64,000 nt of DNA from Squalus acanthias. Lineage: Eukaryota. The notes under the pieces are model-generated. The model saw only the letters and a list, made by a program, of their open reading frames with translations. It searched no databases and was not told the origin of the DNA. The stretch spans positions 39,000,001 through 39,064,000 of the forward strand of contig CM059432.1 of the NCBI GenBank assembly GCA_030390025.1, read 5' to 3'. This document shows, piece by piece, positions 6,166 to 60,309 of this stretch (position 1 is the first letter of the stretch; each line of letters begins with the position of its first letter). Position numbers and translations under genes: made by a program.

Positions 6166-6184
6166 TGGGGGTTGCAGAGGGGTC

Positions 6185-30400: not shown

Positions 30401-33400
30401 GCATCATTCCATTTTTGGTGAGTTCCGTGGTGAACAGCAGCTCCTGTAATCAAATCGGGTGGTTTGAATCACAGTGATAGTTGGTTTTCTTTTGCTACTA
30501 TAACAGGAGAGTAGCAGATACTGTAGATATTGTCACACAGTAACTCAACTTCAAGACCGTGTTGCTCTTTATTGGGTAGGTTCTTTAATGCTAGGGACGT
30601 TTGTTGCTATATATTCTTCAGAAAATGTGTTATGTTTTAAATGCATCTAGCTTAATGATTAGAGCCGGGCTTTTAATCTTCAGACTTGGTACATTGACAT
30701 ATGAACATTGTTCTATTTTCCTGCTGCATTGTAGCATCATTTGATTGCAGGAGTTTAATACAGTGTCATACAGATTGTATTTTGTTTTAAAACTGAATGA
30801 AACTTCAATTTAAAAACAACTGACACAACTGCACAGTACCATGTGCTACATGCTAAAGAAAAACAATGCTGCATTTTAAAATTGTAATAGCTGTTACTCT
30901 GCTTCTGTCCCTTTGTAAACTCTGCAATCTGACGAAATACAGTACCTCCAGATTCAAGACTTGACATCGGTGGCAGTTAACTAATGGGTCTGTTTCACAA
31001 GTGTGAAAGCCCATTATTCATGGTGCTGTAGTCAAGAGTGAGTTATGGAACACTTTCTCACCAGTGAAATAAACTCAGTAACTAAGCATGAGCAATGTGA
31101 CGCTCTTTTAATTATATCGTCATTAATGTTTAGGGTGTCAAAAAGTGCATATGAAAAATATATTTATATTTTAAAACATTAACACTTCATCTGAGTAGGA
31201 GATTTAGAGCTAGAAAATTTAGAATGACAGCTTGATTAAGTGCTGAGTATTTGAACTGTGTGGTGACTGTGAGGGTACTGATAAAAAAACATGTGTGTGG
31301 GCCTCTTAAATCTTTCTCCTTAGCAGTTTTATATGACTCTAGTTCACTCTGTGTGGTAAGAATTAATCCTCAATATTTTCATTAACCATGGTAATAATAT
31401 TAATGATCACTTAAGAAATGTATTAAATGTTGAAAAAACATCTAAGTTTCAATTTTCAAGAATTGCTAAATGCCACTGGACAATTGAAATAGTGATACAC
31501 TATAGAAACTGGCAGGCACAGTGAGTTATTATACTGTGAGTTTGGGCAGTCTCAGCCCTGTTGCTGATGAAACCATCCCAAATTTGGGAATAAATTGGTA
31601 ATCTCACTCAGAGATGCTACGAGGATGACTGATGTGGGAATGGCCATGTCATGTCTTGCAGTTAGGGGTGTTCTGAAGTTGAGTCTGAAGGACATTGCTG
31701 GGAGAGAGTAGAAATAACATAAGTCTGCATCTAATCGTGCTATACCTGACCTGGAAGTGGTTGATGCTGTGTATGCAAAATTGGAACGCTTTGCCTATTA
31801 TTACACGAAAATGGTACTGGGGTCCTACAATTAAACATAAGATCCTGATTTAAATACTGAAATAAGGCTCCCGCTTGTTTCGAGCAGGAATACTGACCAC
31901 CTATTTGAAGGCCTGTTTGAGAATCGAGTTGGGTGAGCCTCAGGTGGCCAATGGGCATGAAATTTGACGACATTTTTTGTTTGCCGACTGCCCCAATTTT
32001 CAATGTACATGTGGCGGTGAGCAGACAAAGATCGTCCCAGGATGTTTCTGGTGTGAAACAATGTCTCAAGTATATGGGTCATGACTGATAATTGCACAGC
32101 TGAGATTTGGACAGTGTTGACAGCCCTGGCTTTGTGACAAATTACAATGAGACATAGGCCTGGAATTTCCTCGGAGCTGCTCCTGCTCTCCTGCTTACAG
32201 TGAAGTTATGGCCGCAGAGTGGGAGCTGTTCTGAGGAAATTCCCAGCTTAAATCTTTCAGCTGTCCCAAACTATACAATTCAATGATACTGTACAACAAA
32301 AACTTATAAGATCCTGTACCATATCTGGTAGGTGATGGGAAATTATTAAATGACTATATATAATCTTATTAAAATTAAGGTATCTCCTGTGGTAAACAAT
32401 GATTCCATTTGCAGTGTCGTTCCTATTTCCCCCATTCTCTCCATCCAATTCTCTGTGTAGTATTTTTATTTTATAACTTTAGTTTTAGCAGAGGAAGGTA
32501 TAAGACTATGAGGAGAAAGCAGGGTAGCAAAGAGCTAGCACAGACACATTTGGTCTATTGGACTCCTTCTGCATTGTAAGCTTCTGTGGTTCTATCGAGT
32601 ACATCAGTCCTGAGACTTGTGCTGCTACGTGCGATCTGTATCATTTCTGACACTTATGCAGGCATGAGAGGGGGCTGGTGGGCGCGTTCACAGGTGCTGC
32701 AAACCTGAGAGACAACACTATCATCTGTGGCTATCCCTACCATCCATCTAGTACTCATCACTGGCCCATGGTCAATGATCTGCAGGAAAGCAAATCTAAT
32801 GGTCCCAACGAGATTAGTGAGTGCTCATATGATGCTTGTCTGTAACCCCTCTCCAATCCTTTTGAGGCCAGAAGATAGAGTCCTCTCCAATCTCACACAC
32901 TAGGCCTTTATGACAGAAGCCAGAACAGCTATGAAAGATAGAAAGACTTACATTTATACAGCGCCTTTCACGACCACCGGATGTCCCAAAGCGCTTTACA
33001 GCCAATGAAGTACTTTTTTTTAAAGTGTAGTCACTGTTGTAATGTAGGAAAGTTGTAATGAAAGAAGGAGAGTGCTCTTAATGCCTTTGTCATGGGAGCC
33101 TCTGCTGTGGATGTCCTTGGAAGTGTCATGGTGGCTCCAATGTTGTTAATCTGTCCTCCAATGTACTTTGCATATCACCGCCGTCTGCAGCACATTGTCT
33201 GATTCAAACCCAATGACTGCAGTTAGTGTTTCATCTGTTCTTTTAAAAACAGTGACCTGTGAAATCGAGATCCCAAGGATGTTCTGCTGAGAGATGACAC
33301 ATCCAGGCTTTCTGGCCAGCAGTAACTCTTAATTACACCACCACCAGCTGTTCCTGCTCACTTTGCTATGGCTCACTCTCTAATTACCCCCAAATTAATT

Positions 33401-33484
33401 GACCAGAAGAGGTAGGTAAAGGGGATAAGGGAATGGAGTTCCTACAACATGTACAGGACTCCTTTCTAACTCAGTATTTAAGAA

Positions 33485-34110
33485 GAATGGAGTATAAAAG
33501 TAGGGAGGTCTTGCTACAACTGTACAGGGCACTGGTGAGACCACACCTGGAGTACTGCGTACAGTTTTGATCTCCTTATTTAAGGAAGGATATATTTGCA
33601 TTGGAGGCAGTTCAGGGAAGGTTCACGAGGTTGATTCCGGAGATGAAGGGGTTGTCTTATGAAGAAAGGTTGAGCAGGTTGGGCCTATACTCATTGGAGT
33701 TTAGAAGAATGAGAGGTGATCTTATTGAAACATATAAGATACTGAAGGGGCTTGACAGGGTAGACGCAGAGAGGATGTTTCACCTCGTGGAGGAATCTAG
33801 AACTACGGGGCATAATTTCTAAATAAGGGGGCACCCATTTAAAATGGAAATGAGGAGGAATTTCTTCTCTCAGAGGGTCATGAATCTGTGGAATTCTCTG
33901 CCCCAGAGAGCTGTGGAGGCTGGGTTATTGAATATATTTAAGGTGGAGATAAACAGATTTTTGAATGGTAAGGGAGTCAAGGGTTATGGGGAGTGGGCAG
34001 GGAAGTGGAGCTGAGGCCAAGATCAGATCAGCCATGATCTTATTGAATGGCGGAGCAGGCTCGAGGGGCCAAATGACCTACTCCTGCTCCTACGTCTTAT
34101 GTTCTTATGT
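33485..34110 (+). mobile_element. CR1 3' fragment
   Basis: ORF 33601-33822 and CTTATGTT tail. Confidence 0.9.
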
Positions 34111-35967: not shown

Positions 35968-37374
35968 ACAATTTCTAAATTTGCAGATGACACCAAATTT
36001 GGGGGGCGGGTTCATCAATACTGAGGAGAACAGTAACAAATTACAAGAAGACATTAATAAACATGCAGAATGGACATATAATTTCAAATGATTTTCAAAA
36101 CAGATTACTGTGAGGTATTACATTTTGGGAAGAAAAATAAGGATATCATATATTACTTGGAAAATAAGAATCTAAGGGGTAAAAATTCACTTGGTTGCGC
36201 CTCCCGTTAGCACCTTAAGAGGGCGCTAATGGGGCGTTAAGCCGCTAACGCCCGGGCGCAGCGCTGTTTGCGCCGCTCGAGAACTTAACTTGAGATTGTG
36301 CGGCGGCGCTAAAACTTACCGCTGCGACCACCTGCGCGCGCAGATTGTGACGTCATTCCATGGTGCAACGCCCTTGGGGCGCCCCGGAGCGGAAATTGAG
36401 TGGCGCCCCCTGCCTTACCGCCTGGCGCTTCCAACGACCGGAAGACTGGAACGTTATCAATCGGTGTGGGGCTGGGGGGGGCGCTATTTAAAGGGGGCCT
36501 CTTCCTGTCTTTTTCTGTGGTCGACATTTATGCACCACTCGTTCTGAGAGAGAGAGAGAGATTCGGAGAGAGAGAGAGAGAGACTTCTACATTGACTCAA
36601 CGCTTTGTGAGGTAGTTTGGCCTAGTTCATCCTAACTTTGTTGCTACTTTAGTTGCTGTACCTCATTACTTTTCTGGCAAAGAGAATATGGGGGCTGCAA
36701 TGATTGGGGGCGTCGTCCTGCTCCAGCTGAATCGGAGGATAGTGAGACGCAGACAGAGAGTGGCAATGATGGCCAGACGGAGGAGGGCCATCAGGCGCAT
36801 GTACAGGAGAGCTTACCCTCCCAGGGTATATCGTGAACAGCTCTCCTACATCCATATGTCCGAGGAGCTGTGTTTGCGAAGGCTGCGATTCAGCAAGGAG
36901 GTGGTCACTGAGCTCTGCCACCTGCTGCAGCCAGATCTGCAGCCTCAGCTGAGGTCCAGGACGTCTCTGTCGGTGGCAGTGAAGGTCACAGTGGCTTTGA
37001 ACTTCTACGCCACTGGCTCATTCCAAGCTGCTGTTGGGGACCTCGCCAATATCTCCCAGTTTGCGGTGCATCGCTGCATCCGGCAGGTCACCAATGCCCT
37101 CTTCAGAAGGAGACGAGACTTCATCTCTTTCCCTATGACCCCAGACAAGCAGCGTGACCGTGCTATGGGCTTTGCGAGGGTAGCGGGCTTCCCCATGGTG
37201 CAGGGCGCCATTGACTGCACGCATGTGGCTTTGCGTGCTCCGCGAGAGAATGCAGAGGAATTCAGGAACAGAAAGGGGTTCCATTCCTTGAATGTGCAGT
37301 TGGTCTGTGACCACAGACAGGTGATTCTCGCTGTCAATGCCCACTATCCGGGCAGCTGCCACGATGCTTTCATC

Positions 37375-39021
37375 TGTAAGGGATTTGACCGTGCGTGTCT
37401 CGCAGCCTGTGAGATTCACGCGGCTCTGTGCAGCCTGTATGTCAGTGCGGGTCTAGGCCTTGTTGCCTGTTCTGGTCTCCAGCCAGTCTGGGAGCACTAG
37501 ACACACCTGTGAGTGGTTCGAATCACTCGCCCTTACGGTTCTAGACACTGGACTTAGATGCGAGAGCAGTAATGGAGATGAAACTCATGTAGACTCGGTT
37601 GAATGGTACGAAATGGAAAATCTTTATTGCATGATATTTAAGATTATGAAATACATGTCATAAGCACAGATTAATGACAGTACAATCTTACAAGCAGTTA
37701 TATAGCTAATCCTAGGGAAACGAGGAACGAACGACACACCGTAAATAGGGGCACACATTACAAGTATCCTTAATACTTAAACCCTCCCCTATCAATATCT
37801 GTCCTAGCTAGATTCGTAGGATTTCGAGACTCATGCTCACCACTCGTGATAACTCGGAGAAATTCCGAATAGCTGATCGGATGTTTTTCACCGCAGCACC
37901 CACGTGTCGATCAGGAGATCTCCTGGTCCCACTTGTTTACTTGCTTCTGCTCCGGCTAGCAGGCTGGACCGTCTGCTGTGATGAAGATCTGTGTTGGTTG
38001 GTTTAACTGGCACAGTCCGAATGGGTTTCACAGACCAGTCAATATTATCTTGGAGGATCTTCCAAGGTCTATTCTTGCAAGTTCAAAGAAGTCTCCCTAG
38101 CAAGGAAAACTTGGCTATTCGACCTACAGGCGCGGTCGGGATCTACTGACCGTGGCGATGAGTATGGTCTTCCTCTCTTCTCATCTCATCTCATCTCATC
38201 TCGGGCCTTTGGTTCCGATGCCAGTTACCAACATAGGTCTTCGTTACGCGACACGAGGTAGATCCTGAACGGATCAGAAAGTTCAACAGCCTTTTTCAAA
38301 GAGGCACCAGGCAAGCAGGCACAAGACTACGAGTCAAAACACAGGAGCAGCCACGAGGTTACGAGTCGATCGGATAAGAGAATAAGAGAAAGATGGACGG
38401 TTGGAGCTTGTAATTATAGTACAAAATCTTCCGTTTCCCGCCCAACCTTAATGTCCTTTCTTTTGTTAGGGTTTGGCGCTCAAATGTCTTGTATGGGTGA
38501 TCTCCGTTCTTAATGGGTTTCGGGGCTACTCGTAAATGTCTGAGTACCTGTTAATATTTCTCCCATTGTTAAATCGGTCGGTGTTCTCCCTGGAGGGGTT
38601 TTGGGGCTTCCAAGTGTTTTGAAAAACTACCCGCTAACGGCTCTCTCATCGTAGAGTCGTTGGGATTTTACATATTAATGTCTTTGGATGGGCCCTTGAT
38701 TACTTGGTACAATAGCTTTCATTCGTACCTTGGGAGACCGATTTCAGTATTTATGTGTATACTGTAAACCCATAATGTCTCGTGTATTATCTTCAATGTG
38801 CTGAATCTTAATCGATCTTGCACAAATGTTTATTGGAACGCCATCTTGTCTGCCTGTCGGAAAGTCTAGAATGTTCTGTCACGAGGTGCGGCGGCCATTT
38901 TACAGGCTGCTTGTGTCCACTTTGAGAAACCTGACAGCATTCTGCTGAAATAAAAGCTGTTTGAACGAAACTCTGTGTTTTCTCCTTATTAATAAAATCG
39001 CGATATATTGCGAATTCTACA
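37375..39021 (-). repeat. 3' LTR (1647 bp)
   Basis: Near-identical to 45078-46724 (5 transitions seen by eye); minus-strand AATAAA at 37623-37628; preceded on the minus strand by a purine-rich tract. Confidence 0.97.
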
Positions 39022-39033
39022 GTCCCTCCTGTT
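39022..39033 (-). promoter_or_regulatory. Polypurine tract (short, imperfect)
   Basis: Minus strand AACAGGAGGGAC directly abuts the TGTA start of the 3' LTR. Confidence 0.65.
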
Positions 39034-39471
39034 GATGCGAATAACTCCGCTTATCGTATCAAAAATCATAGTGGTGAGCAATATTATCTCGATTTCTCTC
39101 CGAATCCAGCAAATTAATCCCATAACTTTAACCTAAATAGGGTCTCTGTGTCGTCCTTATTTCCCAAGAAAATTACATTTTATATCACCGTGGGCCTTTA
39201 TTTGCCCTTAAACTTACACCACTTGTTTTCCTTCCCGGCGTAACCAGGCCGATGCCTCTCGTATCACCTGTATATTCATCTTTTATTCAGGGAAAGGAAA
39301 AACAAAACCCAAAACCAAACAATCATTTTTAACTATAACACCATCACCAAAAATAATCAACACCAACTCTTAACATGTCGAGTTCCAAACGTATTTACAG
39401 TCTTTGAAAATCATGATCGAGTACAAACTTCCGCGGCGCACGTGGCGAGCGGGAATGACGCCATTTTCCGA

Positions 39472-41823
39472 TTACACGGTGCTTTCATCGTGCACGCGCA
39501 CGTAACGTTCTCGCCACTCTCCCGTGTTTTCATGCTTGGTGAGGCGTTTGTCTCTTTTACAATGTACGACCAATAGGTACACTACAATAAACACTTGACA
39601 TACGACTAAAATGTGGGAGGCTATTCTGATCCATGAAGGCACTTCAATATTGGTGAACAGATTCCACCACGGTGGAACTACTATATCCAGAATGTCTGTT
39701 CCTATTTCGACAGTTTTCTGTTCTAATGTGTAAAAATGTTTCTGTGACACCGCGACGGCTTTTAAAAGCTTGGTGAGGTGTTCAGGGAGAGGGGGAATGA
39801 GGTATCCGAAATGCGCGAAAAATCGCTGCAAGTCGGTGAAATTCTCTTTTACTGTGAGATGAACAGTGGATGGTTCAGGGATTGGGATAATTCGCTGTTG
39901 TGCTACTTGAACTTCCGCCCTGGGTTTGAAACAGAAACTGCTGTCACTCACCGGACACCGGCTACGGTTTCCATGCTGGTAGTGTTGCGCTGCAGTGGTA
40001 ACACAATATGTTCCACCCCCGATGTATGCTACCTGCGGAGGCACATGATCTTGTGCCATTGCCTCCATGGTGCAATTCATGGACTTGGCGCCAGTCGTTC
40101 TGAACCCGCACTGTGGTGTTAAAAAGGCATTCAAGTGCTGGGGGCACAGTATTATGTGTGCTCCCCTGCCACGACAACCAGAGAGATCTGTACCTGTCAT
40201 CATTTGCTCCCAGCGGATGACGTAAGGTGGAACCGCTGCATAACGAATGTGGGCTCCCCCCTGAATGACACCAATGTTCTCTACCCGATACACCGGGGCG
40301 GGCTTTGCTGTGTCGCCCAAAACCGGCATGCGTAAAACTATACCCATAATGGTATGGTTTGATCGTCCGCAGTCCACGGGGACTGGGTATGCTTCTGAAG
40401 CTAGCCTGAGCTGGCACGGGCTCAATGCGTTCTGAAAAGGGTGGAGCGCCCGCAGGTGTTTGTTACTTATCCAGGACAGGACCAAACCTTGTTTTAAATC
40501 CTCCAAATTACTGCGGCCCTCGCCCAGTAACCACGCCCCGTAAAGCACGCACACCTCGTTCTGCGCAGCTTGATCGGATGTATTCCGATCTTCCCTAATC
40601 AGGGCATTTACCGTCTTTGCATGTTTCTCCAACTCTGCTATAATTTCCTTTAAATGGAGAGTCATGGCTTGGTCCTCGTGTAGACCAGACCCTACCACTT
40701 TATTCTCATCTGTTAGAATGTCTTTTAATTGTGTCTTTAAACCATTAATCTGGGTCTGCAGCTCCACACTGTCTAGAGCGTTGACCACAGATGTACCCGT
40801 GTTAAAAGCAGTGAACGCGTCGTTCACTACACCCCTTCTTTGCCTCCCTACTTGATCCAAAACTTCCTGTGGTGCGGTGTACAAACTTGTTTTATCAATT
40901 TCCGCGAAATCGAATTCGTAAAATTGTCTGAACATCTTGGTCAACAGGACCTGATACAACTGTTGCGTCTTTTTGGGGCACCACTCTGGTAACCGTACCT
41001 CAGTGAGATTTAAAATCACCGAGGCCACCGCGTAATGTACCCCCTGAAATAGTATCTGGTCAGTGGGGACCAGTACCAAACCATTCCCGGGTCCCTTACT
41101 AGTTTTAGGGCACCCTTCCTCTTCAGCTAGAACCACCGGAATCGTGGGCGGGGCTTTGCGTGGGCGCGTAATGAGCTCAGTGGCATTTACCGGGATCGAA
41201 GAGTATGGGGCTCCGCACCCCCTGGTGCTCGCATCCCACCTCATCCCCTGTCCGTTATCCTGCCACTGATTAATGAAAAATATGGATATGCCTTTGGGGC
41301 AAGGGTATTTTGACCCCCACATGCATACATAAATTCCCTCGTCCGGTTCCCACCATTTGTCCCAACAGACTTTCACTTGTCCGTTTGTCCCCGTAATTGT
41401 CCGATGGGTATTATTATCCAGTCGCTCCCACTCGACCGAAGAGTTCCTCATAGTTTTGCTCAGCTTTCGCAGCCACCACCATCGGCTCAATGGGACATTC
41501 CCACTACAAGTCAAACAAATCCGTTTGCCGACGGTGACGCTGATCCTGGGTGCGATGATCCTTACTTTGGGGCACATTAAAGAAGTCTCTTGGTAGGCAA
41601 ACCCCGATGTGCTGGAATACTCCGTCGAGTTCGTTCCCAGCCATCCTGGCCACCTTCCCTTGTGGAAATAGGTGCTGGTCTCCTCTGCCTCCCGTCTTCC
41701 GGTCCCATCCACCGCGATGGGGGCCGTGTCCCCGGAGCATCCAAACACCACGACATCCTTGGTGCGGCCTCGATAGGCCAATCCACATCCGATTGCCGCG
41801 AGCAATACTAGAATTCGTTCCAT
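39472..41823 (-). CDS. env: Envelope glycoprotein, class I fusion (F-like), about 783 aa, with putative Ig-like domain
   Basis: Signal peptide MERILVLLAAIGCGLA; furin site RQRR (40834-40845) followed by fusion-peptide-like GVVNDAFTAFNTGTSVVNAL and a heptad repeat; Cys-rich ectodomain; TM ASHILVVCQVFIVVYLLVV; short tail. ORF is open from 41982, but a splice acceptor lies just upstream of ATG 41823. Confidence 0.9.
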   Translation of the reverse strand: MERILVLLAAIGCGLAYRGRTKDVVVFGCSGDTAPIAVDGTGRREAEETSTYFHKGRWPGWLGTNSTEYSSTSGFAYQETSLMCPKVRIIAPRISVTVGKRICLTCSGNVPLSRWWWLRKLSKTMRNSSVEWERLDNNTHRTITGTNGQVKVCWDKWWEPDEGIYVCMWGSKYPCPKGISIFFINQWQDNGQGMRWDASTRGCGAPYSSIPVNATELITRPRKAPPTIPVVLAEEEGCPKTSKGPGNGLVLVPTDQILFQGVHYAVASVILNLTEVRLPEWCPKKTQQLYQVLLTKMFRQFYEFDFAEIDKTSLYTAPQEVLDQVGRQRRGVVNDAFTAFNTGTSVVNALDSVELQTQINGLKTQLKDILTDENKVVGSGLHEDQAMTLHLKEIIAELEKHAKTVNALIREDRNTSDQAAQNEVCVLYGAWLLGEGRSNLEDLKQGLVLSWISNKHLRALHPFQNALSPCQLRLASEAYPVPVDCGRSNHTIMGIVLRMPVLGDTAKPAPVYRVENIGVIQGGAHIRYAAVPPYVIRWEQMMTGTDLSGCRGRGAHIILCPQHLNAFLTPQCGFRTTGAKSMNCTMEAMAQDHVPPQVAYIGGGTYCVTTAAQHYQHGNRSRCPVSDSSFCFKPRAEVQVAQQRIIPIPEPSTVHLTVKENFTDLQRFFAHFGYLIPPLPEHLTKLLKAVAVSQKHFYTLEQKTVEIGTDILDIVVPPWWNLFTNIEVPSWIRIASHILVVCQVFIVVYLLVVHCKRDKRLTKHENTGEWRERYVRVHDESTV

Positions 41824-42139: not shown

Positions 42140-43264
42140 TTAAATTCTGAGAAAACTGCTGCGAGCTCTTACCGACTTTGGGAGGGCTCTGACCTTTTCC
42201 TCTGATCTGCCGCAGCCTGTTTCTGCGCTGACCCCTCCCTCTGATCTGCCGCAGCCTGTTGCTGCTGCGATGGGGCCGGGCTGTACCTGGGCTGCCTTAA
42301 CCTTGAGTCTGCGCCTTGGGACAGACTGGGGCAATACCCATATCTTCTTGGGCTGGGGTTCTCTACCTGACCTACGGGGAGTTGTCATGGGCGGGGGTTC
42401 CGTGACTGACGGACCGGGTTCCGAGACTTCCATCGGGACGACCTGTGGTTCCACCACAGTCGCTGGCTCCGCCTCCGCTGACTCCGCCTCCCTAACCTCG
42501 GGGCTCGCAGTTTGTGGCTCCGCCCTGCTCGGCCCAGCAGGCGGCCCTTCACTCGCGATCTCTGCCTCCCCCGAGGGCGGGACGTTCAAAGCGGGCGGCT
42601 CTGTCTCTGGGGTCCTCACCGTCACCCCCTGTGCTCCCACAGCGGCTGGCTCCGCCTCCCCTAGCTCCTCCCTCCTGTCTTCGGGACCTGCAGCTTGTGT
42701 GTCCACCCTGTGTGGATCTCTATCTGCAGCCCGTATCCTCCCTATACCTAAAATGGGAACGTTCCTTAGGTTCCCCAAAAACCACTCGCCTTCCTCACCA
42801 TCCTCATCTGACTCCCATCCCCACAAAAATGCTTCGTGAACTTCCAGGATGTCTCCTCCCCTGATGCAAGCTGCTTTGCCTGCCTGTGTGCCTTGTGGTC
42901 CTACCTGGGGCTGCGCGTCCCCACTCGCGGGGTTTACCCCTGTGGTTTTCCCTTGCGCACCTGGCTTGTACAGTTTGCACTGGTTTACATCCTCATACTC
43001 CCGGCTTTTGGCTACCCTGTAGGCTGCTTTTATCTCACTAAGCTGCGCTTCTAGCCTGAGCACGTCTAACTTTCCCATTGATCGGGCGTTCTCCTCCCGC
43101 AGGGCCTGCTCTCTAAGCTGCCCTTCCAGCCCATCTATTTTCCCTATTAAGCGGGCGTTCTCCTCCCGCAAGGCCTGCTCTTTTAACCTGGCCTCCTCAC
43201 CGCAGACCCCCTCCTGTGCGTGTCTTTTAAAAGGACACAGGTAGGCAGGCTGCGTGGGCTCTAG
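42140..43264 (-). CDS. ORF2, in frame with gag and occupying the pol position; coiled coil plus acidic/Pro-rich low-complexity protein of unknown function
   Basis: Open from the codon after TGA 43265-43267 to the stop at 42140; same frame as gag; duplicated EQALREENAR and TGCGRSE units; no protease, RT, RNase H or integrase motifs visible. Confidence 0.7.
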   Translation of the reverse strand, partial: LEPTQPAYLCPFKRHAQEGVCGEEARLKEQALREENARLIGKIDGLEGQLREQALREENARSMGKLDVLRLEAQLSEIKAAYRVAKSREYEDVNQCKLYKPGAQGKTTGVNPASGDAQPQVGPQGTQAGKAACIRGGDILEVHEAFLWGWESDEDGEEGEWFLGNLRNVPILGIGRIRAADRDPHRVDTQAAGPEDRREELGEAEPAAVGAQGVTVRTPETEPPALNVPPSGEAEIASEGPPAGPSRAEPQTASPEVREAESAEAEPATVVEPQVVPMEVSEPGPSVTEPPPMTTPRRSGREPQPKKIWVLPQSVPRRRLKVKAAQVQPGPIAAATGCGRSEGGVSAETGCGRSEEKVRALPKSVRARSSFLRI

Positions 43265-43459
43265 TCATTGGGTACTATTAGACGGTCCTGCGGCACCTAC
43301 GGGGCCGGTTGCAACCGCCACCTTTCCATGTGCACTCAATAAACTGCGCATGGCTCCCAACACTACTTCGAGGTCGTCGGGAGGGGTGGGTGCACCAGCT
43401 TCCCTAGCAGGGACAGGCGTCTGGGCTCGGGCTGCGGGATTTTTATCCTTGGAATCCTT

Positions 43460-45073
43460 TCAAGGGTTCCTGCAATGCTTGCGCCAGTGCCCTGTCTTCC
43501 CACACCCGTAACAAGCATTACTTGCCTGTGGGGCGCGATTACCCTCCTGATGCCACTCCCTTTGATACGGGGCTGCGGGTCGTACCTCATGTACTTTTCC
43601 CTTAAGGGGACGTGTTCCCATACCCCTTATATTGCGATATCCTAACGTGAGTCGATTCAAGACCGACTCTTCCGTAATGTTGGGGTCATTGGGATCAAAC
43701 CATGCCTTTGCCTGCTCTCTGACGGCTGGTAAACTGTTGGCTATTATGCACCTAAGCCAATGAGCTAAACCGGCGCCTTCCACATCTTCGCGCTCTGGCG
43801 CACCTAGACAGCTGCGCTGATATACTGGCCACAGCCTATCGGCAAAAACCTTCGGGGGTTCTCCCTCCATCTGCACTGTCTGTCCCACTCTAGCAAACGG
43901 ACCTTCATCGTCCGCCCCCAACACTTCCAGGACCTCATTCTTTAATGCCTCATAAGTCTTGGTTCCCCTCTTGCTCTCGCCCGAGAGACACTGAAGGATT
44001 GTACTGCCTAACGAAAACAACAGCATTTTTGCTGTTTCCCCATCATCGCAGCCGTTAATGGCTGCGGTTTGCTCAACTTCTCTGAAATGTACGGAAGGGT
44101 CGTCTGCCTCGGTTAGCTTCCGTACGTGATTTATCATAACTCTCAGCTGATGTGAACTGTGAGGCAATACAAGCTGTCCGAGGAGATCCCCTGATCCCTC
44201 CCCACCGTTTCTGTTTGGGCCCCTTTTTATACCCGTTACTGGATACAACGGTCCCTTTTCCACCTCTTTCTCAATGGGCTCTTTCGTTTCTTCCATTGCT
44301 TCCTCCCTTACCCAGGTTTCCGAATAGCTGGGTGGCGCGGAGGGCGCAGTGGCTACTACTTCCTCTGCTTTACTTGGTGGGGATTTATTAAACTCCTCAC
44401 TTACTAGCGGCTGGTGTGCTGACGGACTGATAAGGCACACCATGCCGTGCGCTTTGTTCACGGCCTTTTTGAGGTGCTCTATCTCCCTTTTGCAAGCGCT
44501 ATGATCAGCTCCCTGAAACTTATCCTCAAGGGCCAACTTATATGCCGCCCTAACCCCCGTTAAGCTCTCTTCCTGAGTTCTTATCTGGGCAGCTTGGCGG
44601 GCACATCGTTCCTTTAACCTGCTCTCATTTAACTTTGCCTCAGTGACCTGGCACTCGAGGTAATCTATCCTTGTTTTATGGTGACTGGAGATTTCCTGGC
44701 GTTCTTGGTGCAACGCACTTAAATTCCTAATGAGCATTTCCCCTCCAGAAACCTTCTCATCCATTTCTCCCTCTAAATGACTGATTCGAGCTGTTAGCGC
44801 TGTAATGGTCTGGTTTGAAATCTGGACCTGCCTTTTGTAACACATTAGCCAGACTGCTTTCTCAAGTGTCTTTTTATGTTCTTTACTATCTGTCCACCTT
44901 TCGGCTGCCTCTAGCGGGCTTTTATCCGCTAACAATTCACTTATCCATTTCTTAGTTAGATTAACCTTTCCAAACACATAATCTGCTATCTTTTCCTGCA
45001 TAACATTTCGTACAGTCATTCCAAAGTCTAACACACTACCCTCTCGCTGCCAGTGTCCTGCCGCGGTCGCCAT
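43460..45073 (-). CDS. gag: Gag polyprotein (537 aa to first TGA; frame stays open a further 64 codons to TGA at 43265-43267)
   Basis: N-terminal coiled-coil region, PSAPPSY late-domain motif, Ty3/gypsy-like capsid segment (DDPSVHFREVEQTAAINGCDD...), C-terminal CX2CX4HX4C knuckle CYGCGKTGHWRKHC; starts at the PBS. Confidence 0.9.
   Translation of the reverse strand: MATAAGHWQREGSVLDFGMTVRNVMQEKIADYVFGKVNLTKKWISELLADKSPLEAAERWTDSKEHKKTLEKAVWLMCYKRQVQISNQTITALTARISHLEGEMDEKVSGGEMLIRNLSALHQERQEISSHHKTRIDYLECQVTEAKLNESRLKERCARQAAQIRTQEESLTGVRAAYKLALEDKFQGADHSACKREIEHLKKAVNKAHGMVCLISPSAHQPLVSEEFNKSPPSKAEEVVATAPSAPPSYSETWVREEAMEETKEPIEKEVEKGPLYPVTGIKRGPNRNGGEGSGDLLGQLVLPHSSHQLRVMINHVRKLTEADDPSVHFREVEQTAAINGCDDGETAKMLLFSLGSTILQCLSGESKRGTKTYEALKNEVLEVLGADDEGPFARVGQTVQMEGEPPKVFADRLWPVYQRSCLGAPEREDVEGAGLAHWLRCIIANSLPAVREQAKAWFDPNDPNITEESVLNRLTLGYRNIRGMGTRPLKGKVHEVRPAAPYQREWHQEGNRAPQASNACYGCGKTGHWRKHCRNP
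45055..45072 (-). promoter_or_regulatory. Primer-binding site, tRNA-Arg type
   Basis: Minus strand TGGCGACCGCGGCAGGAC, 5 nt after the 5' LTR; complementary to the 3' end GTCCTGCCGCGGTCG-CCA that I recall for vertebrate tRNA-Arg(TCG). Confidence 0.85.
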
Positions 45074-45077
45074 TTTC

Positions 45078-46724
45078 TGTAAGGGATTTGACCGTGCGTG
45101 TCTCGCAGCCTGTGAGATTCACGCGGCTCTGTGCAGCCTGTATGTCAGTGCAGGTTTAGGCCTTGTTGCCTGTTCTGGTCTCCAGCCAGTCTGGGAGCAC
45201 TGGACACACCTGTGAGTGGTTCGAATCACTCGCCCTTACGGTTCTAGACACTGGACTTAGATGCGAGAGCAGTAATGGAGATGAAACTCATGTAGACTCG
45301 GTTGAATGGTACGAAATGGAAAATCTTTATTGCATGATATTTAAGATTATGAAATACATGTCATAAGCACAGATTAATGACAGTACAATCTTACAAGCAG
45401 TTATATAGCTAATCCTAGGGAAACGAGGAACGAACGACACACTGTAAATAGGGGCACACATTACAAGTATCCTTAATACTTAAACCCTCCCCTATCAATA
45501 TCTGTCCTAGCTAGATTCGTAGGATTTCGAGACTCATGCTCACCACTCGTGATAACTCGGAGAAATTCCGAATAGCTGATCGGATGTTTTTCACCGCAGC
45601 ACCCACGTGTCGATCAGGAGATCTCCTGGTCCCACTTGTTTACTTGCTTCTGCTCCGGCTAGCAGGCTGGACCGTCTGCTGTGATGAAGATCTGTGTTGG
45701 TTGGTTTAACTGGCACAGTCCGAATGGGTTTCACAGACCAGTCAATATTATCTTGGAGGATCTTCCAAGGTCTATTCTTGCAAGTTCAAAGAAGTCTCCC
45801 TAGCAAGGAAAACTTGGCTATTCGACCTACAGGCGCGGTCGGGATCTACTGACCGTGGCGATGAGTATGGTCTTCCTCTCTTCTCATCTCATCTCATCTC
45901 ATCTCGGGCCTTTGGTTCCGATGCCAGTTACCAACATAGGTCTTCGTTACGCGACACGAGGTAGATCCTGAACGGATCAGAAAGTTCAACAGCCTTTTTC
46001 AAAGAGGCACCAGGCAAGCAGGCACAAGACTACGAGTCAAAACACAGGAGCAGCCACGAGGTTACGAGTCGATCGGATAAGAGAATAAGAGAAAGATGGA
46101 CGGTTGGAGCTTGTAATTATAGTACAAAATCTTCCGTTTCCCGCCCAACCTTAATGTCCTTTCTTTTGTTAGGGTTTGGCGCTCAAATGCCTTGTATGGG
46201 TGATCTCCGTTCTTAATGGGTTTCGGGGCTACTCGTAAATGTCTGAGTACCTGTTAATATTTCTCCCATTGTTAAATCGGTCGGTGTTCTCCCTGGAGGG
46301 GTTTTGGGGCTTCCAAGTGTTTTGAAAAACTACCCGCTAACGGCTCTCTCATCGTAGAGTCGTTGGGATTTTACATATTAATGTCTTTGGATGGGCCCTT
46401 GATTACTTGGTACAATAGCTTTCATTCGTACCTTGGGAGACCGATTTCAGTATTTATGTGTATACTGTAAACCCATAATGTCTCGTGTATTATCTTCAAT
46501 GTGCTGAATCTTAATCGATCTTGCACAAATGTTTATTGGAACGCCATCTTGTCTGCCTGTCGGAAAGTCTAGAATGTTCTGTCACGAGGTGCGGCGGCCA
46601 TTTTACAGGCTGCTTGTGTCCACTTTGAGAAACCTGACAGCATTCTGCTGAAATAAAAGCTGTTTGAACGAAACTCTGTGTTTTCTCCTTATTAATAAAA
46701 TCGCGATATATTGCGAATTCTACA
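45078..46724 (-). repeat. 5' LTR (1647 bp)
   Basis: Direct repeat of 37375-39021; on + begins tgtaagggatt and ends gaattctaca; followed on the minus strand by the PBS. Confidence 0.97.
46114..46146 (-). promoter_or_regulatory. Candidate LTR promoter (GC box plus TATA-like)
   Basis: Minus strand GGGCGG (46141-46146) about 20 nt upstream of CTATAATTA (46114-46122). Confidence 0.45.
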
Positions 46725-47496
46725 CATCCTGCGCCAGACTACTGTGGCAGAACTTTTCGAGGCACCGCATCAGCCAGTTGGTTGGCTTCTGGGGGACAAG
46801 GGGTACGCATTGAGCACCTGGCTGATGACACCGCTCCGTACGCCAAACACCCCTGCTGAGCTGCGGTACCAGGAAAGCCATCAAGCAACCAGGAACATTA
46901 TTGAGCGCACAATCGGCGTGCTGAAACAACGGTTCCGCTGTCTGGACCATTCCGGAGGAGCCCTGCAGTACTCGCCTGAGCAAGTTTCGAACTTCGTAGT
47001 CGTGTGCTGCATGTTGCACAACATGGCAATCCTCAGGACCCAGCCAATGCCACCAGGCCTTGTAGCACCACCAGAGGAGGAGGAGGAAGAGGAGGAACAG
47101 GACGAGGACGATGATCATCAGCAGCACCAAGGCAGGAGGGCGGCCCACAATGGTCAAACTGCAAGGGCCGTCCGTCAACGACTAATAGCAAGCCGCTTCT
47201 AGGGCCCCTGCCATTGCTACAAACACTAATCAACCCAGCACGCAACCCCTAAGCCGGCCAAGGCACCAATAATTCCAACCACCAGCCATGTATATTTTGA
47301 ATACAGAAACTTATTTATTTTACAAACTCTGTGTGTGTCAATTCCTCATGACAAACTCATAGAAATAAACACAAAAAAACAGTCAATAACATAACTGGTT
47401 CTCACAACCTGGAGATAATGTCCAAAACACTAAACAAAAGTTGGACCATGAACCTCGGCCTTTAATAAAAAAATGACCAGCATTTTGGCACACCTC

Positions 47497-49408
47497 CTAC
47501 TTTTTGCCCTTCGAGGGTGATCTCCTTCCCTTGCGCACTTCCCCCCTTCTAACCCTACTGCTCCTCCGTAATGGGACCTCAGTGGCTGCAGCAAGGCTGG
47601 TGGAAGGCTGCTGCTCGTCAGACCCTGACACTGCAGATGCCCCTGAAGGACGGCCTCGACCACTTCTGGGCCTGGAGGGCCCGGCTGCAGACTGCACCAA
47701 CTCTGCATGGGCGGCAGCAGTCTGTCCTACAGGCGGTGGCAAGTGCAGTGGAGAAGTGACAGTGTTGGCAGCAGGAATGCTGTCATCGTGAGAGAGGACA
47801 GCAACTCCCTGCTCGCCCGACACACTGGCACTCCCACGGGGCAGCACTTCAGCATCCGGAGCAATTTGCCGGAGAACAGATTGCTGGCCTGCTGCGGCGC
47901 GGTGACAGCCCCGGGGACATGTGCACGAACCATCGAGGATGGCAGCAGTCAGTGCTCGCGTGGCCTCAATCTGAGTCTGCATGAGAGCAGTCTCAGATGG
48001 GTTCCTGGCAGCCAGTGACTGAATTGCAGCACTAAGCTTTAGTGTGGCATCCGCCTGTGCTACAGCGAAGTGCTCCACACTCCTTGCCAGTGCCTCAATG
48101 CATTCGGGCACCCTTCCCACTGCACCCATGAGCTCAGTGTGCATGCCCACCGCCTGGCTGTTCATTTCTGCAATCAGCCGCTCCTCCTCTGCGTCCATTG
48201 CAGTAGGAGTGTCTGGCATACTCTCCCTCTGGGGAGAAGGCTCCCGTTCTTCCCTCCCCCCCCCATGGCGTTGCTGCAGCCCGCTGGGTCCTGGAGCTTC
48301 ACCATCATCAGCCCCTTCCCCCCTGCTCCCCTCCGGGGAAGGCGTGTTCCCAGTGTGGGCATGGGCTTCCTCGGGAGAGGGTGGCACTGATGCTCCGGCT
48401 TCCTCTTCCTCCTCAGCTGCAGCATCACTCCCAGTGGCAGCTTCAGGGCCCGTCTCCTCAGCTGGTGAATCACCATCTGAAAGCAGGGAGGTACAAGAGT
48501 GGCTTTAGCGTGAGGACAGGGTGGCAGTAAGGGAGGAATAAGTGCAGCGAGTTAGCAAGTTGGATTGAAAGTGTCAAAGGCTGGTATTGTGAGGGACAAA
48601 AAGGTGATGACCTTACCATTGCTGTCCACAACGGGGTCGGCGTCCCCAGTGGCGACGGGACCGATCACCCGGCTTGCCACAATCCTGTGGACGCGCTCCT
48701 CCAGATCGCTGAGGGGTTGCAGCTGAAGCCGCCCTCCACCCGTCCGTTGCTGCTGTCTCCGATTATGAGCCAGCTTAGCCTGCAAGAAAAAGGACAGCAT
48801 CTGAGTAAATATACAGCCATGGTCTTGCCTGATGTGCCTCCCATAGGTGAATAGCCCTTACAATATGCAGCCATGGTCTTGCCTGATGTGCCTCCCATAG
48901 GTGAATAGCCCTTACAATATGCAGCCATGGTCTTGCCTGATGTGCCTCCCATAGGTGAATAGCCCTTACAATATGCAGCCATGGTCTTGCCTGATGTGCC
49001 TCCCATAGGTGAATAGCCCTTACTGTATGCAAAGTGTGGAATGTGTGTGTGTGTTTGATGAAAGGGCCATAGGTGTTGCATGAGTGTTGTGCATTGGGGT
49101 TTTAAGACCCTCTGGCCATAGAGTGAGGTTGAGATGGAGGGATGGAGAGGTATTGAGAAAAAGCCACTCACCCTGACGACCCGAGTGAGGTCGTTGAACT
49201 TTTTGCGGCACTGAACATGGGTCCTGGGCACCATGCTCCTGGAGGAGACGCTCTGAGCCACCTCCCTCCACACTCTTCTGAACTCGCGTGGCAAAGGCCT
49301 CCTGCCACTCTCCGGGAACAGCATGCATCGTCTGCGCTCCACTGCGTCAACCAGAGCATCCAAGGCCCGCTCGGTGAAGCGATGAGCGCGTTCTCTCACC
49401 CTCTCCAT
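47497..49408 (-). CDS. Harbinger Myb/SANT-like DNA-binding protein; exons 49408-49172, 48779-48617, 48476-47497; 459 aa
   Basis: Exon 1 RFTERALDALV...WREVA...QCRKKFNDL; canonical donors GTGAGT and GTAAGG and pyrimidine-rich CAG acceptors; phases 0 and 1 splice into one open frame ending ...SKGKK*. Confidence 0.85.
48814..49029. repeat. 54-bp tandem repeat x4 in intron 1 of the Myb/SANT gene
   Basis: Unit cagccatggtcttgcctgatgtgcctcccataggtgaatagcccttacaatatg starts at 48814, 48868, 48922 and 48976. Confidence 0.95.
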
Positions 49409-50149
49409 GCTTGGCAGCAAAATGGATTCACAGGTCTCTCCAGGCCGAGATTCAAGGCTGCAATGAGCAGGGTGTGGCTGGGGAGCAAGTGGCCCCCCCC
49501 GCTTTAAGAAGTGTCCGGCGCCAGTGTGTCTGTGTTCCCTCGCTAACTGGCAGCAGCTGCGCTGCGCTCGTGCGCTGAGGTAGCGCCTCACTCCTAGGCC
49601 TTTGCGCCTTAAGAGAGGTGTGCAGCGCCTAATTTAGCGCTCCACTCACCTCCCGGGGCGGTAAAAGTGAAGTTTCCTGTCAGTGCCGATAATTAGCGCC
49701 AGGCGCTAATATTTGCGCTCGGACGATATTTGCGCCCCAAATGGGGCGCGACCTAATTTCTACCCCTAAATGTGGTACAGCAACAAAGGCATCTGAGAGT
49801 ACAAATGCACAAACCACTAAAAGTAGCAGCGCAGGTTAACAAGGCCACAAAAAAAGCAAACCAAGCACTAGGGTATATTTCTAGAGGGATAGAATTGAAA
49901 AGTAGAGAAGTTATGCTGAACTTGTATCAAACCTTGGTCAGACCACACTTGGAGTAAGAAGGATATAGAGGCACTGGTGAGGGTGCAAAAAAGATTTACA
50001 AGGATGATACCAGAAATGTGAGGTTATACCCATCAGGAAAGAATGAACAGGCTGGGTCTCTTTTCTCTTTAAAAGAGAAGGCTGAGGGGTGACCTCATTG
50101 AGGTCTTTAAAATTATGAAAGGTTTTGATACAGTAGGCACAGAGAGAAT

Positions 50150-52779: not shown

Positions 52780-55745
52780 GGGGGTCAGCGGGCGAGATCG
52801 GTGGCGGGTCGGGCGGGAAAGTGTTTTTTTTTGACAGTGGGATGGAATCCCGCTGTCAACCCGCTGCCACGCGCCTTTCCCAATGTCGGGTCTGTCAGCG
52901 CTGAGCGGACCCAACAGGCAGCGGCAGGACACTCAATTAATCTCATTAATATCTAGTTGACAGATCATTAACAGGCTTTTTTAACTTACCTTTTCATTTA
53001 ACTTCATGGCCACGGGAACCACGCTGTTCTGGGACCATGGCTGTCAACCTGAAACATAGAAACATAGAAGATAGGAGCAGGAGTAGGCCATTCGGCCCCT
53101 CGAGCCTGCTCCGCCATTCGATGAGATCATGGCTGATCATCTAAACTCAGTACCCTGTACCTGCCTTCTCCCCATATCCCTTGATACCTTTAGCTTTAAG
53201 AAATATATCTAACTCATTCTTGAATATATTTAATGACTTCGCCTCAACTACCTTCTGTGGTAGAGAATTCCACAGGTTCACCACTCTCTGGGTGAAGAAA
53301 TTCTTCCTCATTTCTGTCCTAAATGGTTTACCCGTTATCCGTAGATTATGACCCCTGGTTCTGGACTCTCCGACCATCGGGAACATTCTTCCTGCATCTA
53401 GTTTGTCCAGACCTGTCAGAATTTTATATGTTTCGATGAGATCCCCTCTCATTCTTCTATACTCCAGTGAGTATAAGCCCAATCGACCCAATCTCTCCTC
53501 ATATGTCATTCCTGCCATCCCAGGTAGCAGCCTTGTGAATCTTCGCTGAACTCCTTCCATGGCAAGAACATCCTTCCTCAGATAAGGCGACCAAAACTGC
53601 ACACAGTACTCAAGGTGTGGTCTCACCAAGGCCCTGTACAACTGCAGCAGGACATCCCTGTTCCTATACTCAAACCCTTTCGCTATGAAGGCCAACATAT
53701 CATTTGCCTTCTTCACCGCCTGCTGCACCTGCATGCTTACTTTCAGCGACTGGTGCACAAGGACACCCAGGTCTCGTTGCACTTCCCCTTCTCCCAATCT
53801 ATTGCCATTCAGATAATAGTCTGCCTTTCTGTTTTTGACACCAAAGTGGATAACCTCGCACTTATCCACGTTATATTGCATCTGCCACGCTTCTGCCCAC
53901 TCACCCAACCTGTCCAGATCATCCTGGAGTTTCTCGGTATCCTCCTCGCAGCACACACTCCCACCCAGCTTTGTGTCATCTGCAAACTTGGAGATATTAC
54001 ATTTAATTCCCTTATCTAGATCATTAATGTATATTGTGAATAGCTGGGGTCCAAGGACCGCTCCCTGCGGTACCCCACTAGTCACTGCTTGCCACTCGGA
54101 AAAAGACCCATTAATTCTTACTCTTTGCTTTCTGTCTGCCAACCAGTTCTCTATCCAAGTCAATACCTTGCCCCCAATCCCATGTGCCTTAACTTTACAC
54201 GCTAATCTCTTATGCGGGACCTTATCGAAAGCCTTTTGAAAGTCCAAATACACCACATCTACTGGTTCTCCCTTATCTATTTTCCCAGTTACTTCCTCAA
54301 AAAATTCCAGTAGATTAGTCAAGCACGATTTACCTTTTGTAAATCCATGTTGACTTTGTCCGATCCTGTCACTGTTTTTCAAGTGCTCAGCTATTACATC
54401 CTTTATAATGGACTCTAGCATTTTCCCCACTACCGATGTCAGGCTTACCGGTCTGTAATTCCCCGCTTTCTCTCTACCACCCTGTTTGAATAGTGGGGTA
54501 ACATTAGTTACCCTCCAATCCATGGGTACAGTTCCAGATTCCATCCTGAGGTGGGAGTTCAGTGGCCATTGCTCCAGCTGATTACTTGACAGCTTCAAAT
54601 GTACAGTAAAAGCTCCCACCTTACAGATCATCACTTTCCTCAGCCAGAAGCTGTTTCTCAGGCCATTTCCAGCACAGATTCTGCAGGCTTTCCACTTTCC
54701 ACTCTCTATCCAGTATCATCTCATTGGAAGAACTCTCTCACCATTGGTACAATGCTTCTGTCATCTCTACTTCACCTGCTATCTATTCCATCAACATGGG
54801 TGCCCTTTATACTGTCTCACCTTAGTCCTCAGAATCCCATCACGATCAGCCCCAACACCAGCAGCACCAGGCACACCAGCAGCACCAACAACAACACCAA
54901 CCTTCTCCACAATCACCTGATGCTGCACAGGACAGAGAGCATCAGCACCCGAGCACACTGCTGCCCTGGAGGCCAGGGATGGCCTCACCATGGCCAGATT
55001 TACTTCACTTGACGCTGTAAACCCTGGCTGCCACATGATGTGCCAGGTTGGCACCATCCCACACCAGCACTGTAACGCATCCCTTTAATGTCCAAGCCGT
55101 TCCATGCACACTCATCACTATAGCGGGGGGTGGGGTGTGTGGGGGGGGGGCGGAGGCGGGTGGTGGGGGCGGGGAGGGAAGTTATGTCTCAACATTCACT
55201 GGAACTCAGTAAGACACTTCTCAAGGTGCGCACAGATATGTCCAATAAGGGTCAGTGTTAAAAATATAAATTTCACTGAATGACAACACATTACCAGAAA
55301 CTTCACATGACCATTGGCTAAACCTCTCAAGTGCCTACCCTTATGTGTTGTTAGTTGGTAGGATTGCAGTAGGATGAGGGTGAGTGTGAGGGGTGGCTAG
55401 TGAGATGGACATGTGATAATGTAGATAGAGAGGGATGGGTGGAGGTGCAAGGTAAGTTGGTGTGAGTAAGGATGTGCAGGAGAAGGGTATGGAAGGCAGA
55501 GTGATGGGGCTGTGATGAGAGGCACAGCAGGATGAAGGTGAGTGTGGATTTGTCCTAAGTTTCGTGATCTAATGAGATCATTGAAATGTTTGCGGCACTG
55601 CACCCAGGTCCTCCTGATGACCTCCCTGCCTGTGACCTCCTCTGCAATGTGCAACCAGGCTGTCTTGGCCTCCTGGGGAGGTCTCTTCCGCCCATCGGAA
55701 GGGAAGAGGACCTCCCTGCATTCTGTGACTCCCTCCATAAGCATA
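52780..55745 (+). mobile_element. Second, truncated copy of the 50150-type Harbinger with a Myb exon 1 remnant (about 55560-55740, minus), split by CR1
   Basis: 52780-53052 and 54545-55270 match 50165-51090; REVLFPSDG..AWLHIAEEV..TWVQCRKHFNDL. Confidence 0.75.
53053..54544 (-). mobile_element. Young 5'-truncated CR1 with an uninterrupted ORF2 C-terminal part
   Basis: ORF 53147-54634 with full RT; CCTGA duplicated at the junctions; (AACATAGA) tail. Confidence 0.93.
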
Positions 55746-55749
55746 TTTT

Positions 55750-58700: not shown

Positions 58701-59546
58701 ATGCAGATTATCAGGCCCTGGAGATTTATCAGCTTTCAGTCCCATTAATTTCTCCAGCACTATTTTTTTACCAATACTAATTTCCTTTAATTCCTCCTTC
58801 TCACTAGACCCTTGGTTCCCTAGCATTTCTGGGAAGTTATTTGTGTCCTCTTCCATGAAGACAGAACCAAAGTATTTGTTTAATTGCTCTGCCATTTCCT
58901 TGTTCCTCATTATAAATTCTCCCGTTTCTGACTGTAAGGGACCTACATTTGTCTTCACTAATCTTTTTCTTTTTAAATACTTGTAGACAGTATAAACGGC
59001 ACCCAAGCTGATGTAATAAATGGCAGCTCAAGTAGAGATCGGAGAAGCAATCTGTCAATGGTGTAACAATGAGGTGACAGTGGTTTCTGAATTTGCAAAA
59101 AAGACTTGCAAACTCTAGAGACCTAAATCTGTGCTGAAAATGTGCTCAGCAACAGCATTTCCCTTAGGAAAGTAAGCAGGTGGCAGGTGGCAGTATTTAT
59201 TGTGCGTTCCATGCTCTGCAGTAATGACTCCGATCAATGGCCAATGAACTTCCGCCTCAGCTTGATAGACATGGTTCCCGAGCTGCGTGATTCCCATGGT
59301 CATGCAGTGAAATTCAAAAGGTCTGGGCAAAAAGATGGTTACGGGTCTGACAACAAGCTGATAATGATCCAAATGAGGTCTCCTGCCTCAGCCGTTTGGA
59401 TCGCTGCTGTGCTGGCAAACACGCCTGAGTTAAAGGCGCGAGGAAGCGGGATGATGGCGAATTCCCGACCCGCTCCGAATTATTTCCACTTTCACTCCCG
59501 ACCCGCCTCCAATCCTGCGTGCATGGACGAATGAAAATTCCGGCCC
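55750..59546 (-). mobile_element. Degenerate Harbinger copy with a frameshifted transposase (about 59008-55936), split by CR1
   Basis: ORFs 56580-56966 and 56125-56610 ([25 protein letters not shown]); terminal GAAAATTCCGGCCC at 59533-59546. Confidence 0.85.
57160..58985 (-). mobile_element. CR1 LINE inside the Harbinger transposase 5' end
   Basis: ORFs 58173-59006, 57694-58236, 57472-57693, 57258-57488; AGACA duplicated at the junctions. Confidence 0.92.
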
Positions 59547-60144
59547 TTCTGTTTCCTGATTGGAGTACCGCCCCATGTGGTCACAGGTACACTCATGCAC
59601 ACGTGTGGGGCCTTGCACCATGTAAGTGCAAATTCCTTTCGGAGATCGGCGGCGAATGCCATAGCTATGTCACCAACCGCAATTTCTTGGCCATTGTGTA
59701 TACACATCAGTGTTCTTCTGTAGGCCGCCCCATCGAAGTCTTCACCTGAGTCTTGTGCAGCAGAACTCGTGTGCTACCTTGTCCTCCGGGGAGCTGACAC
59801 CTGCGCTACCCTTTCCCCCTGCCCTGCCTGTAGCCCACTCATGCCCGGTGTCTCACCACCTGTGTCTAACCTATCCTCTAAAGTACGTGGTGGCTGGCCG
59901 TGTGAAATCGAGTGACAGTGTTACTTCTTCATCTTCACTCTGCTCTCCCTCTTGTTCAACCACTGGCTGGGCGGGCTGGACTTCTTGGGTCTCTGAAATG
60001 ATAAAGGCACAAGGGTAGGGTTGTGGTGAGGGGAGGGGGGGAAAGCAAGACATGCATGCTTACACCATGCGCACCTTGTAAATCAGAAGAGATTGTGGGA
60101 TGAGGGGGAAGTGTAACGTGAGAAAGAGGATAGCGTATGAGGAT

Positions 60145-60309
60145 CAACGTTCCCGCCAAGCTGTGTGGCCGTGTGGCGGTCTGAAGGTCCAGCGCAGGCC
60201 ACTCACCGGCTTTTAAGTGGGAGAAACCGCGCATGCGCAAAAATTTGAATAGGCCGCGCAGCCACTTAAAGGGACCGTACACCCAAAAAAAAATTAGAGG
60301 GAACATTGA
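60145..60309. mobile_element. Small MITE
   Basis: TIRs CAACGTTCCC / GGGAACATTG. Confidence 0.6.

Follow-up and report, generated by a model that had tools for sequence, protein, structure and literature searches.

A UGA-CUAG stop ends gag in an env-bearing LTR element family of cartilaginous fishes and is probably an inherited gag-pol readthrough signal

The DNA analysed here (the window) is a stretch of 64,000 nucleotides from the dogfish Squalus acanthias (assembly GCA_030390025.1, contig CM059432.1, positions 39,000,001 to 39,064,000). It contains an LTR element on the minus strand that codes for gag, ORF2, and env, and in which no pol was detected; all features described below lie on the minus strand unless marked otherwise. 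The 5' LTR (45078–46724) and the 3' LTR (37375–39021) are each 1647 nt long, begin with TG, end with CA, and differ from each other by five mismatches. The element is flanked by copies of the 4-nt target-site duplication GATG, upstream at 46725–46728 and downstream at 37371–37374. Since the LTRs differ at only 5 of 1647 nt, the insertion is very young, and the TG...CA LTR pair, the target-site duplication, and the absence of pol together are those of a young non-autonomous LTR element. A purine-rich tract (39022–39034) lies ahead of the 3' LTR, and a TGG motif resembling a primer-binding site (45056–45072) directly follows the 5' LTR. The first gag ATG overlaps this primer-binding-site position, 5 nt past the LTR (45077–45056). 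Homologous Gags begin with similar residues, so gag may start either at this first ATG or at a methionine about 24 codons further on.

The open part of gag (43460–45073) encodes 537 aa and was delimited by ORF, domain search, and structure model. It consists of a long N-terminal coiled coil, a capsid-like helical domain (approximately aa 303–486), and a CCHC knuckle (aa 520–535), the last with a weak Pfam zf-CCHC match (E 0.23). An AlphaFold (AF2) model built from four sequences gave the long coiled coil, with a helix at residues 68–183, plus the helical domain. The Foldseek matches listed for this model were all retroviral (HTLV-1, MLV, HIV) or Arc capsids with E values of 0.005–0.13, none reaching 0.001. 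Three residues after the knuckle, the gag frame meets an in-frame TGA (43460–43462) that is followed by AAGG. It is located 65 codons upstream of a second TGA, in the context TGA-CTAG, and the 64 open codons between both stops (43268–43459) align as a C-terminal gag tail, which is homologous to the terminal part of the other Gags in the family.

Downstream of TGA-CTAG, in the gag frame, is ORF2 (42140–43264), which has 374 codons and whose first ATG is codon 63 (43078). It begins with a junction leader, followed by a gag-like coiled coil (aa 27–128), an acidic stretch, a region rich in Pro, Glu, and Ala, and a basic tail. According to the family gag profile (E 6e-7), the segment 43186–42881 repeats the coiled-coil region of gag in diverged form, whereas a direct pairwise comparison of ORF2 with the window's own Gag was insignificant (E 0.3). 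A homologue search with ORF2 found none, and an Atlas search gave leads that all scored below 0.9. The coiled-coil copy carries an internal repeat of about 10 codons, and another short repeat lies near the end of ORF2. An open frame of 231 codons runs antisense to the 3' part of ORF2 (42144–42839, plus strand) and is probably a by-product of composition.

The env-like ORF (39472–41823) encodes 783 aa and was recognised from the open frame, domain searches, and sequence features. It contains an Ig-like stretch, an RQRR site at aa 327, heptad helices, and a transmembrane segment at approximately aa 728–758, and a candidate splice acceptor (41837) lies 14 nt before its ATG. The Ig-like stretch (approximately aa 90–180), ahead of the fusion part, matched Pfam Ig_3 at E 0.15, and the best PDB sequence matches of env were antibody light chains at E 0.13 and weaker; the two weak searches agree. 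There was no match to Pfam PF00523 (paramyxo/pneumovirus F) at E up to 1 and no F protein among the 17 PDB sequence matches, and the single-sequence structure model of env was poor (pLDDT 34). A search with env gave one chordate cluster, at 0.84. Pieces homologous to gag and env are joined in three sequences, P0020 and P0023 (Rhincodon gene models; whale shark) and P0032.

The stop at the center of this study is the TGA of CAA-TGA-CTAG (43261–43270), with the TGA itself at 43265–43267. A reading made from the sequence alone (the sequence-only reading) had reported ACC CAA TGA CTA GAG at 43273–43259 and an open frame of 374 codons after the TGA, and both were borne out when the sequence was re-read, the frame ending at a TAA (42140–42142). 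No stop-free frame arose in 20,000 shuffles of the ORF2 frame in composition-preserving blocks (mean 13.1 stops), which argues that an open frame of 374 codons is not due to chance; over the same stretch, the other two frames are interrupted by 21 and 14 stops. Of the 133 TGA trinucleotides in the element, just one is part of a TGACTAG, and the element's own composition gives a probability of about 0.004 for CTAG after a given stop. Both strands of the 64-kb window together contain seven TGACTAG, and therefore the motif matters solely as a gag terminator. The site has the type II (UGA-CUA) context as described in the accessible text of PMC13517186, with UGA followed by CUA(G) and a long in-frame ORF downstream. 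A type II stop also ends a translated upstream ORF, which is the case for the family and not for this copy, where the TGA at 43462–43460 comes first. The claim of the sequence-only reading that the stop links gag to ORF2 accordingly does not hold in this copy, the gag frame of which has already ended. A -1 frameshift at the TTTTAAAA run (43232–43225) was rejected as a candidate, as the register of the gag frame, judged by eye, does not fit X XXY YYZ.

Which of the two stops ends gag in the family was assessed from other copies and from homologous proteins. Contigs from 4 of 22 public runs (X1, X2, X6, and X10; DNA or unspecified kind) were aligned on positions 42900–43800; these contigs are short, and cross-mapping between copies is possible. 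The codon at 43462–43460 differed from a stop in 99.98%, 99.87%, 100%, and 100% of the depth in X1, X2, X6, and X10, respectively (20, 34, 14, and 1 contigs), that is, in 99.87–100% of the summed contig depth in four of four runs. Since nearly all of the family depth reads otherwise at this codon, the upstream TGA is a rare lesion. Rhinoraja, Scyliorhinus, Heterodontus, and Rhincodon supplied the closest named homologues of Gag; a distant homologue is from Xenopus. All seven homologous Gags with a complete knuckle, which belong to three clusters and show 34–53% identity, extend 58–68 residues beyond the knuckle. In the window, Gag runs 68 residues beyond the knuckle to TGA-CTAG versus three to the upstream stop, and the best Gag alignments stop within 4–13 residues of TGA-CTAG. 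Left out of this count were P0004 and P0006, which end before the knuckle, and the fragment P0012, which lacks the first cysteine of the knuckle and ends seven residues past it. That the upstream stop is so rare, and that the seven homologous Gags end where they do, identifies TGA-CTAG as the normal gag terminator; it is the true gag stop of a high-copy, env-bearing LTR family of cartilaginous fishes.

These results bear directly on the further claim of the sequence-only reading that the element now makes a minor Gag-ORF2 fusion, which for this copy is contradicted by the upstream in-frame TGA: with that stop in place, this copy is unable to make Gag-ORF2 by one readthrough event. Both stops are UGA and share one frame, so a double readthrough is formally possible, but the two low efficiencies would multiply to a negligible yield. 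Moreover, the upstream UGA has an AAGG context, is followed by unstructured sequence (z +0.4), and is absent from at least 99.8% of the depth, and for these reasons we regard it as a lesion rather than a signal and rejected it as a second programmed site. It is thus highly improbable that this copy produces the fusion, and the literal version of the claim has hardly any standing left. The locus is a broken copy, and this limits the finding as it was first stated.

The junction itself was then compared among copies. None of the variants on the 901 nt covered by the contigs fell on 43268–43261, as judged from 40 of the 48 variant rows; 48 variants in 901 nt spare seven given bases about two times in three, so this invariance says little. 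The middle base of the CAA codon before the TGA varies in 17–61% of the depth. Loose ends of contigs, judged by eye from 21 of 100 rows, were more informative. A contig from X6 that aligned from 43260 upward differed at 6 of the 17 letters beyond this point, with no stop (by eye), four of the six differences being at third codon positions; this pattern fits constraint at the protein level, as expected if the frame after the stop were translated. At 43233, 32 nt past the stop, at least seven contigs of X1 and at least two of X10 leave ORF2 for another sequence. This alternative continuation is open in the gag frame for all 10 codons visible; its X1 and X10 versions differ by a single synonymous change, and a 7-nt stretch of it is complementary to positions +8 to +14 (by eye). 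The 32 nt after the stop (43233–43264) are common to the copies that switch sequence and may represent the start of a pol leader, and the 30 letters of the alternative continuation suggest that it is the pol leader of autonomous partners. It may resemble a protease leader. In one X1 contig, a further loose end, located at 43267, leads into sequence unlike the window upstream.

Searches for pol-bearing relatives gave little. A scan of viral contigs with Gag alignments found no true relative, and metagenome scans with Gag alignments found no true relative as DNA, one of them giving 30 loci that were chiefly zinc-knuckle matches. A junction-motif scan of viral contigs returned one match, inside a phage peptidase-like ORF, which was taken as chance. 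A further search, for longer Gag-Pol fusions, came back empty, a negative that carries little weight.

The closest parallel was found in the lokiretroviruses (Wang and Han 2021, PMC7947760). Their Gag likewise joins a coiled coil to a capsid, and the coiled-coil (smc-like) region that is predicted ahead of the retroviral-type capsid in the window is of this type, a feature that is not diagnostic alone. Their env is also alike in having a basic cleavage site, heptads, and a transmembrane segment, a likeness of layout. We read the lokiretrovirus junctions by eye in the visible text of the supplement (dataset S1), in which line breaks may hide motifs. There, 24 records have a pol entry, namely 10 with fused gag-pol, seven with pol only, and seven with a separate gag. 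In six of the seven separate-gag records, gag ends with an in-frame TGA before pol, followed by CTAG in Ofa, Pyo, and Sau and by CTAA in Bsp, Dcl, and Lro; the junction of the seventh, Tfu, falls outside the visible text. The TGA is in frame with the protease motif LLD(S/T)GS in Ofa, Pyo, and Sau, with the annotated Pol start in Dcl and Lro, and with a conserved leader in Bsp, whose record shifts frame before the catalytic motif. Loki-Cne, a pol-only record, also has an in-frame TGA-CTAG, and Loki-Sau carries a CAA-TGA-CTAG identical to that of the window. In the visible supplement, 13 of the 17 TGACTAG matches fall elsewhere than at these junctions. With 10 of the 24 records annotated as fused gag-pol, lokiretroviruses do not all carry the signal. 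The lokiretrovirus group is defined by RT phylogeny, in which its RT is sister to that of retroviruses, and further marks of it are a tether domain and an Env similar to PF00523. The element described here has ORF2 in the place of pol, its env gave no PF00523 match, as stated above, and its Gag further differs in having a CCHC knuckle. None of the three chondrichthyan genomes in the accessible table of PMC7947760 had lokiretroviruses.

The zebrafish element BHIKHARI (Bik-1) is a pol-less relative of lokiretroviruses and, according to the accessible text of 10.1101/2024.03.25.586437, is also a young LTR element with a coiled-coil plus capsid Gag. Unlike the element in the window, which adds the CCHC knuckle, ORF2, and env, Bik-1 has just one ORF, with a glycine-rich patch.

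One could suppose that TGA-CTAG arose without any recoding history and that ORF2 is a captured gag-like segment that came to lie in frame by luck. The prior of about 0.004 for CTAG after a stop is not negligible genome-wide, the conservation seen in close copies does not reach significance by itself, and no pol-bearing relative was found as DNA in viral contigs or metagenomes. Against such an origin by chance, the divergent contigs continue in frame with synonymous changes, and the same in-frame context stands at seven published lokiretrovirus gag-pol junctions in the visible text; we therefore consider it quite improbable. The proposal of the sequence-only reading that an ancestral gag-pol recoding signal has been retained gains support from the ends of the homologous Gags, the in-frame alternative continuation, and the lokiretrovirus junctions. 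Judged from these comparisons, it is very probable that TGA-CTAG was inherited from a gag-pol junction with readthrough.

The same context is used outside retroelements. The alphavirus nsP3/nsP4 junction (in Sindbis, UGA-CUA with a 3' stem-loop) and human UGA-CUAG genes share it, with a similar spacer to the predicted stem in the accessible descriptions; unlike these cases, the candidate site here sits in a retroelement. A stem-loop, the candidate stimulator (43201–43258; folding z -2.5), is predicted from 7–11 nt after the stop to about +64. Its z ranged from -1.0 to -2.8 depending on fold length, and it ranked eighth lowest of 84 windows, which is modest support. The spacer resembles the 7–9-nt spacers reported in the accessible part of PMC3159437. 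The 3' arm consists of ORF2-specific sequence, and two basal pairs of the stem vary in approximately 11–28% of the depth in three runs. According to the accessible texts, UGACUAG alone gives at least about 1.3% readthrough in human genes (PMC13517186), 3' stems lift readthrough 3- to 14-fold (PMC13517186; PMC3159437), and distal context affects readthrough gene by gene (10.64898/2026.07.14.738498).

The sequence-only reading had also drawn a parallel to gamma- and epsilonretroviruses. It stands as far as MoMLV, WDSV, SSSV, and ZFERV likewise have an in-frame stop past the zinc knuckle at the end of gag, in the sources as far as accessible, but it is loose otherwise, as their contexts are of the UAG type or other UGA contexts: the accessible text of the 2026 review PMC13517186 gives UAGGGA, UAGGGC, UGAAGA, UGACGA, and UGAAGU as retroviral contexts, and no UGACUA. 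In contrast to these viruses, the downstream frame in the window is not pol. An in-frame UGA at the end of gag is also found in Tca2 of Candida albicans, which belongs to a different superfamily (Ty1/copia). The gag-UGA-pol junction of Tca2 alone gave no readthrough in yeast reporters in the accessible text of PMC2194720, a warning that such an arrangement of gag and pol does not guarantee readthrough in a reporter.

Taken together, we favour, with moderate confidence, an explanation in which the family inherited a gag-pol readthrough stop, pol was replaced by an in-frame ORF2, and this copy was broken upstream of the signal. In pol-bearing relatives, ribosomes would pass UGA-CUAG a few percent of the time to yield Gag-Pol, probably aided by a stem-loop 7–11 nt downstream. 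In the non-autonomous subfamily, all sequence from 32 nt past the stop would have been replaced by ORF2 in the same frame. As ORF2 is in frame after a retained signal, intact copies would be expected to produce Gag-ORF2 at a level of a few percent, and it is fairly likely that they make some of this fusion. In the copy studied here, ribosomes would end at the upstream stop, before reaching the signal, and essentially no fusion would be made.

Alternatively, the context may be an inherited vestige only, with ORF2, if made at all, being translated from a spliced RNA (acceptor at about 43224) or by an internal route from the ATG at 43078, and any readthrough product being incidental. A weak candidate acceptor (43224–43245; 14 of 20 pyrimidines before AAG) does lie upstream of this first ATG, which has a G at +4, and the acceptor ahead of the env ATG is similar. 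The 43224 acceptor is a weak AAG, however, and two similar sites that are equally pyrimidine-rich fall within the gag tail, which indicates that acceptor-like sites are common here. In addition, the gag-like coiled coil begins at codon 27, before the first ATG at codon 63, and the 62 codons ahead of this ATG form an open frame in which the copies show neither a stop nor an indel row.

The variants within ORF2 speak for the vestige. ORF2-type sequence was covered in all four runs without an indel row, and none of its 12 listed variants makes a stop. Only 2 of these 12 variants were synonymous, as under neutrality (neutral share 0.26, p = 0.86), versus 10 of 18 in the gag core (p = 0.005), a difference of borderline significance (p = 0.058, Fisher's test) in a small sample that spans the first 365 nt of ORF2. 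There was thus no sign of purifying selection on this 5' part of ORF2, and it is doubtful that the Gag-ORF2 fusion is under selection. On the whole we hold the vestige to be unlikely, although it is the most serious of the alternatives, and retain the inherited signal with some fusion from intact copies as the preferred explanation.

Stop-codon readthrough between gag and pol and the UGA-CUAG context are each already known separately, but PMC13517186 gives no retroviral UGACUA site in its accessible text, which also has no mention of loki, gypsy, or shark. The main text of PMC7947760 does not mention stop codon, readthrough, or frameshift. We came across no mention of readthrough for lokiretroviruses or for LTR elements of sharks in the openly accessible literature, and the same holds for the accessible parts of PMC9040795, PMC8922424, 10.1101/2023.10.26.564294, and 10.1101/2024.03.25.586437.

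More speculatively, and with clearly lower confidence than for the inherited junction itself, a high-copy, pol-less, env-bearing element of sharks and rays may have re-purposed the readthrough signal to place a minor extended Gag in its particles. The element would then belong to a chondrichthyan, lokiretrovirus-like branch, and UGA-CUA would be an unreported route to Pol. In this scenario the extension would bring Gag another coiled coil together with a tail that is acidic and rich in proline, and would be comparable to the readthrough domains on the coat proteins of certain plant viruses. If the inherited junction itself is confirmed, part of the sister lineage of retroviruses would have a testable mechanism of Pol expression, together with a shark element family, and the element would illustrate the fate of a readthrough signal once pol is replaced.

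The surroundings of the element are themselves rich in repeats. The insertion splits an ORF for a PIF/Harbinger-type transposase on the plus strand into 36616–37370 and 46729–47202, with positions 1–59 of Pfam DDE_Tnp_4 before the element and 57–158 after it. A Myb/SANT-like partner ORF (48665–49633) lies near the split transposase, and its region holds a 54-nt tandem repeat (48754–49077) of about five copies that are up to 99–100% identical. Numerous dispersed, related repeats in both orientations, some with long ORFs, occur at 880–6200, 10000–10740, 16100–17100, 20660–22600, 33400–34100, and 53000–61700; they are presumably fragments of CR1-type LINEs.
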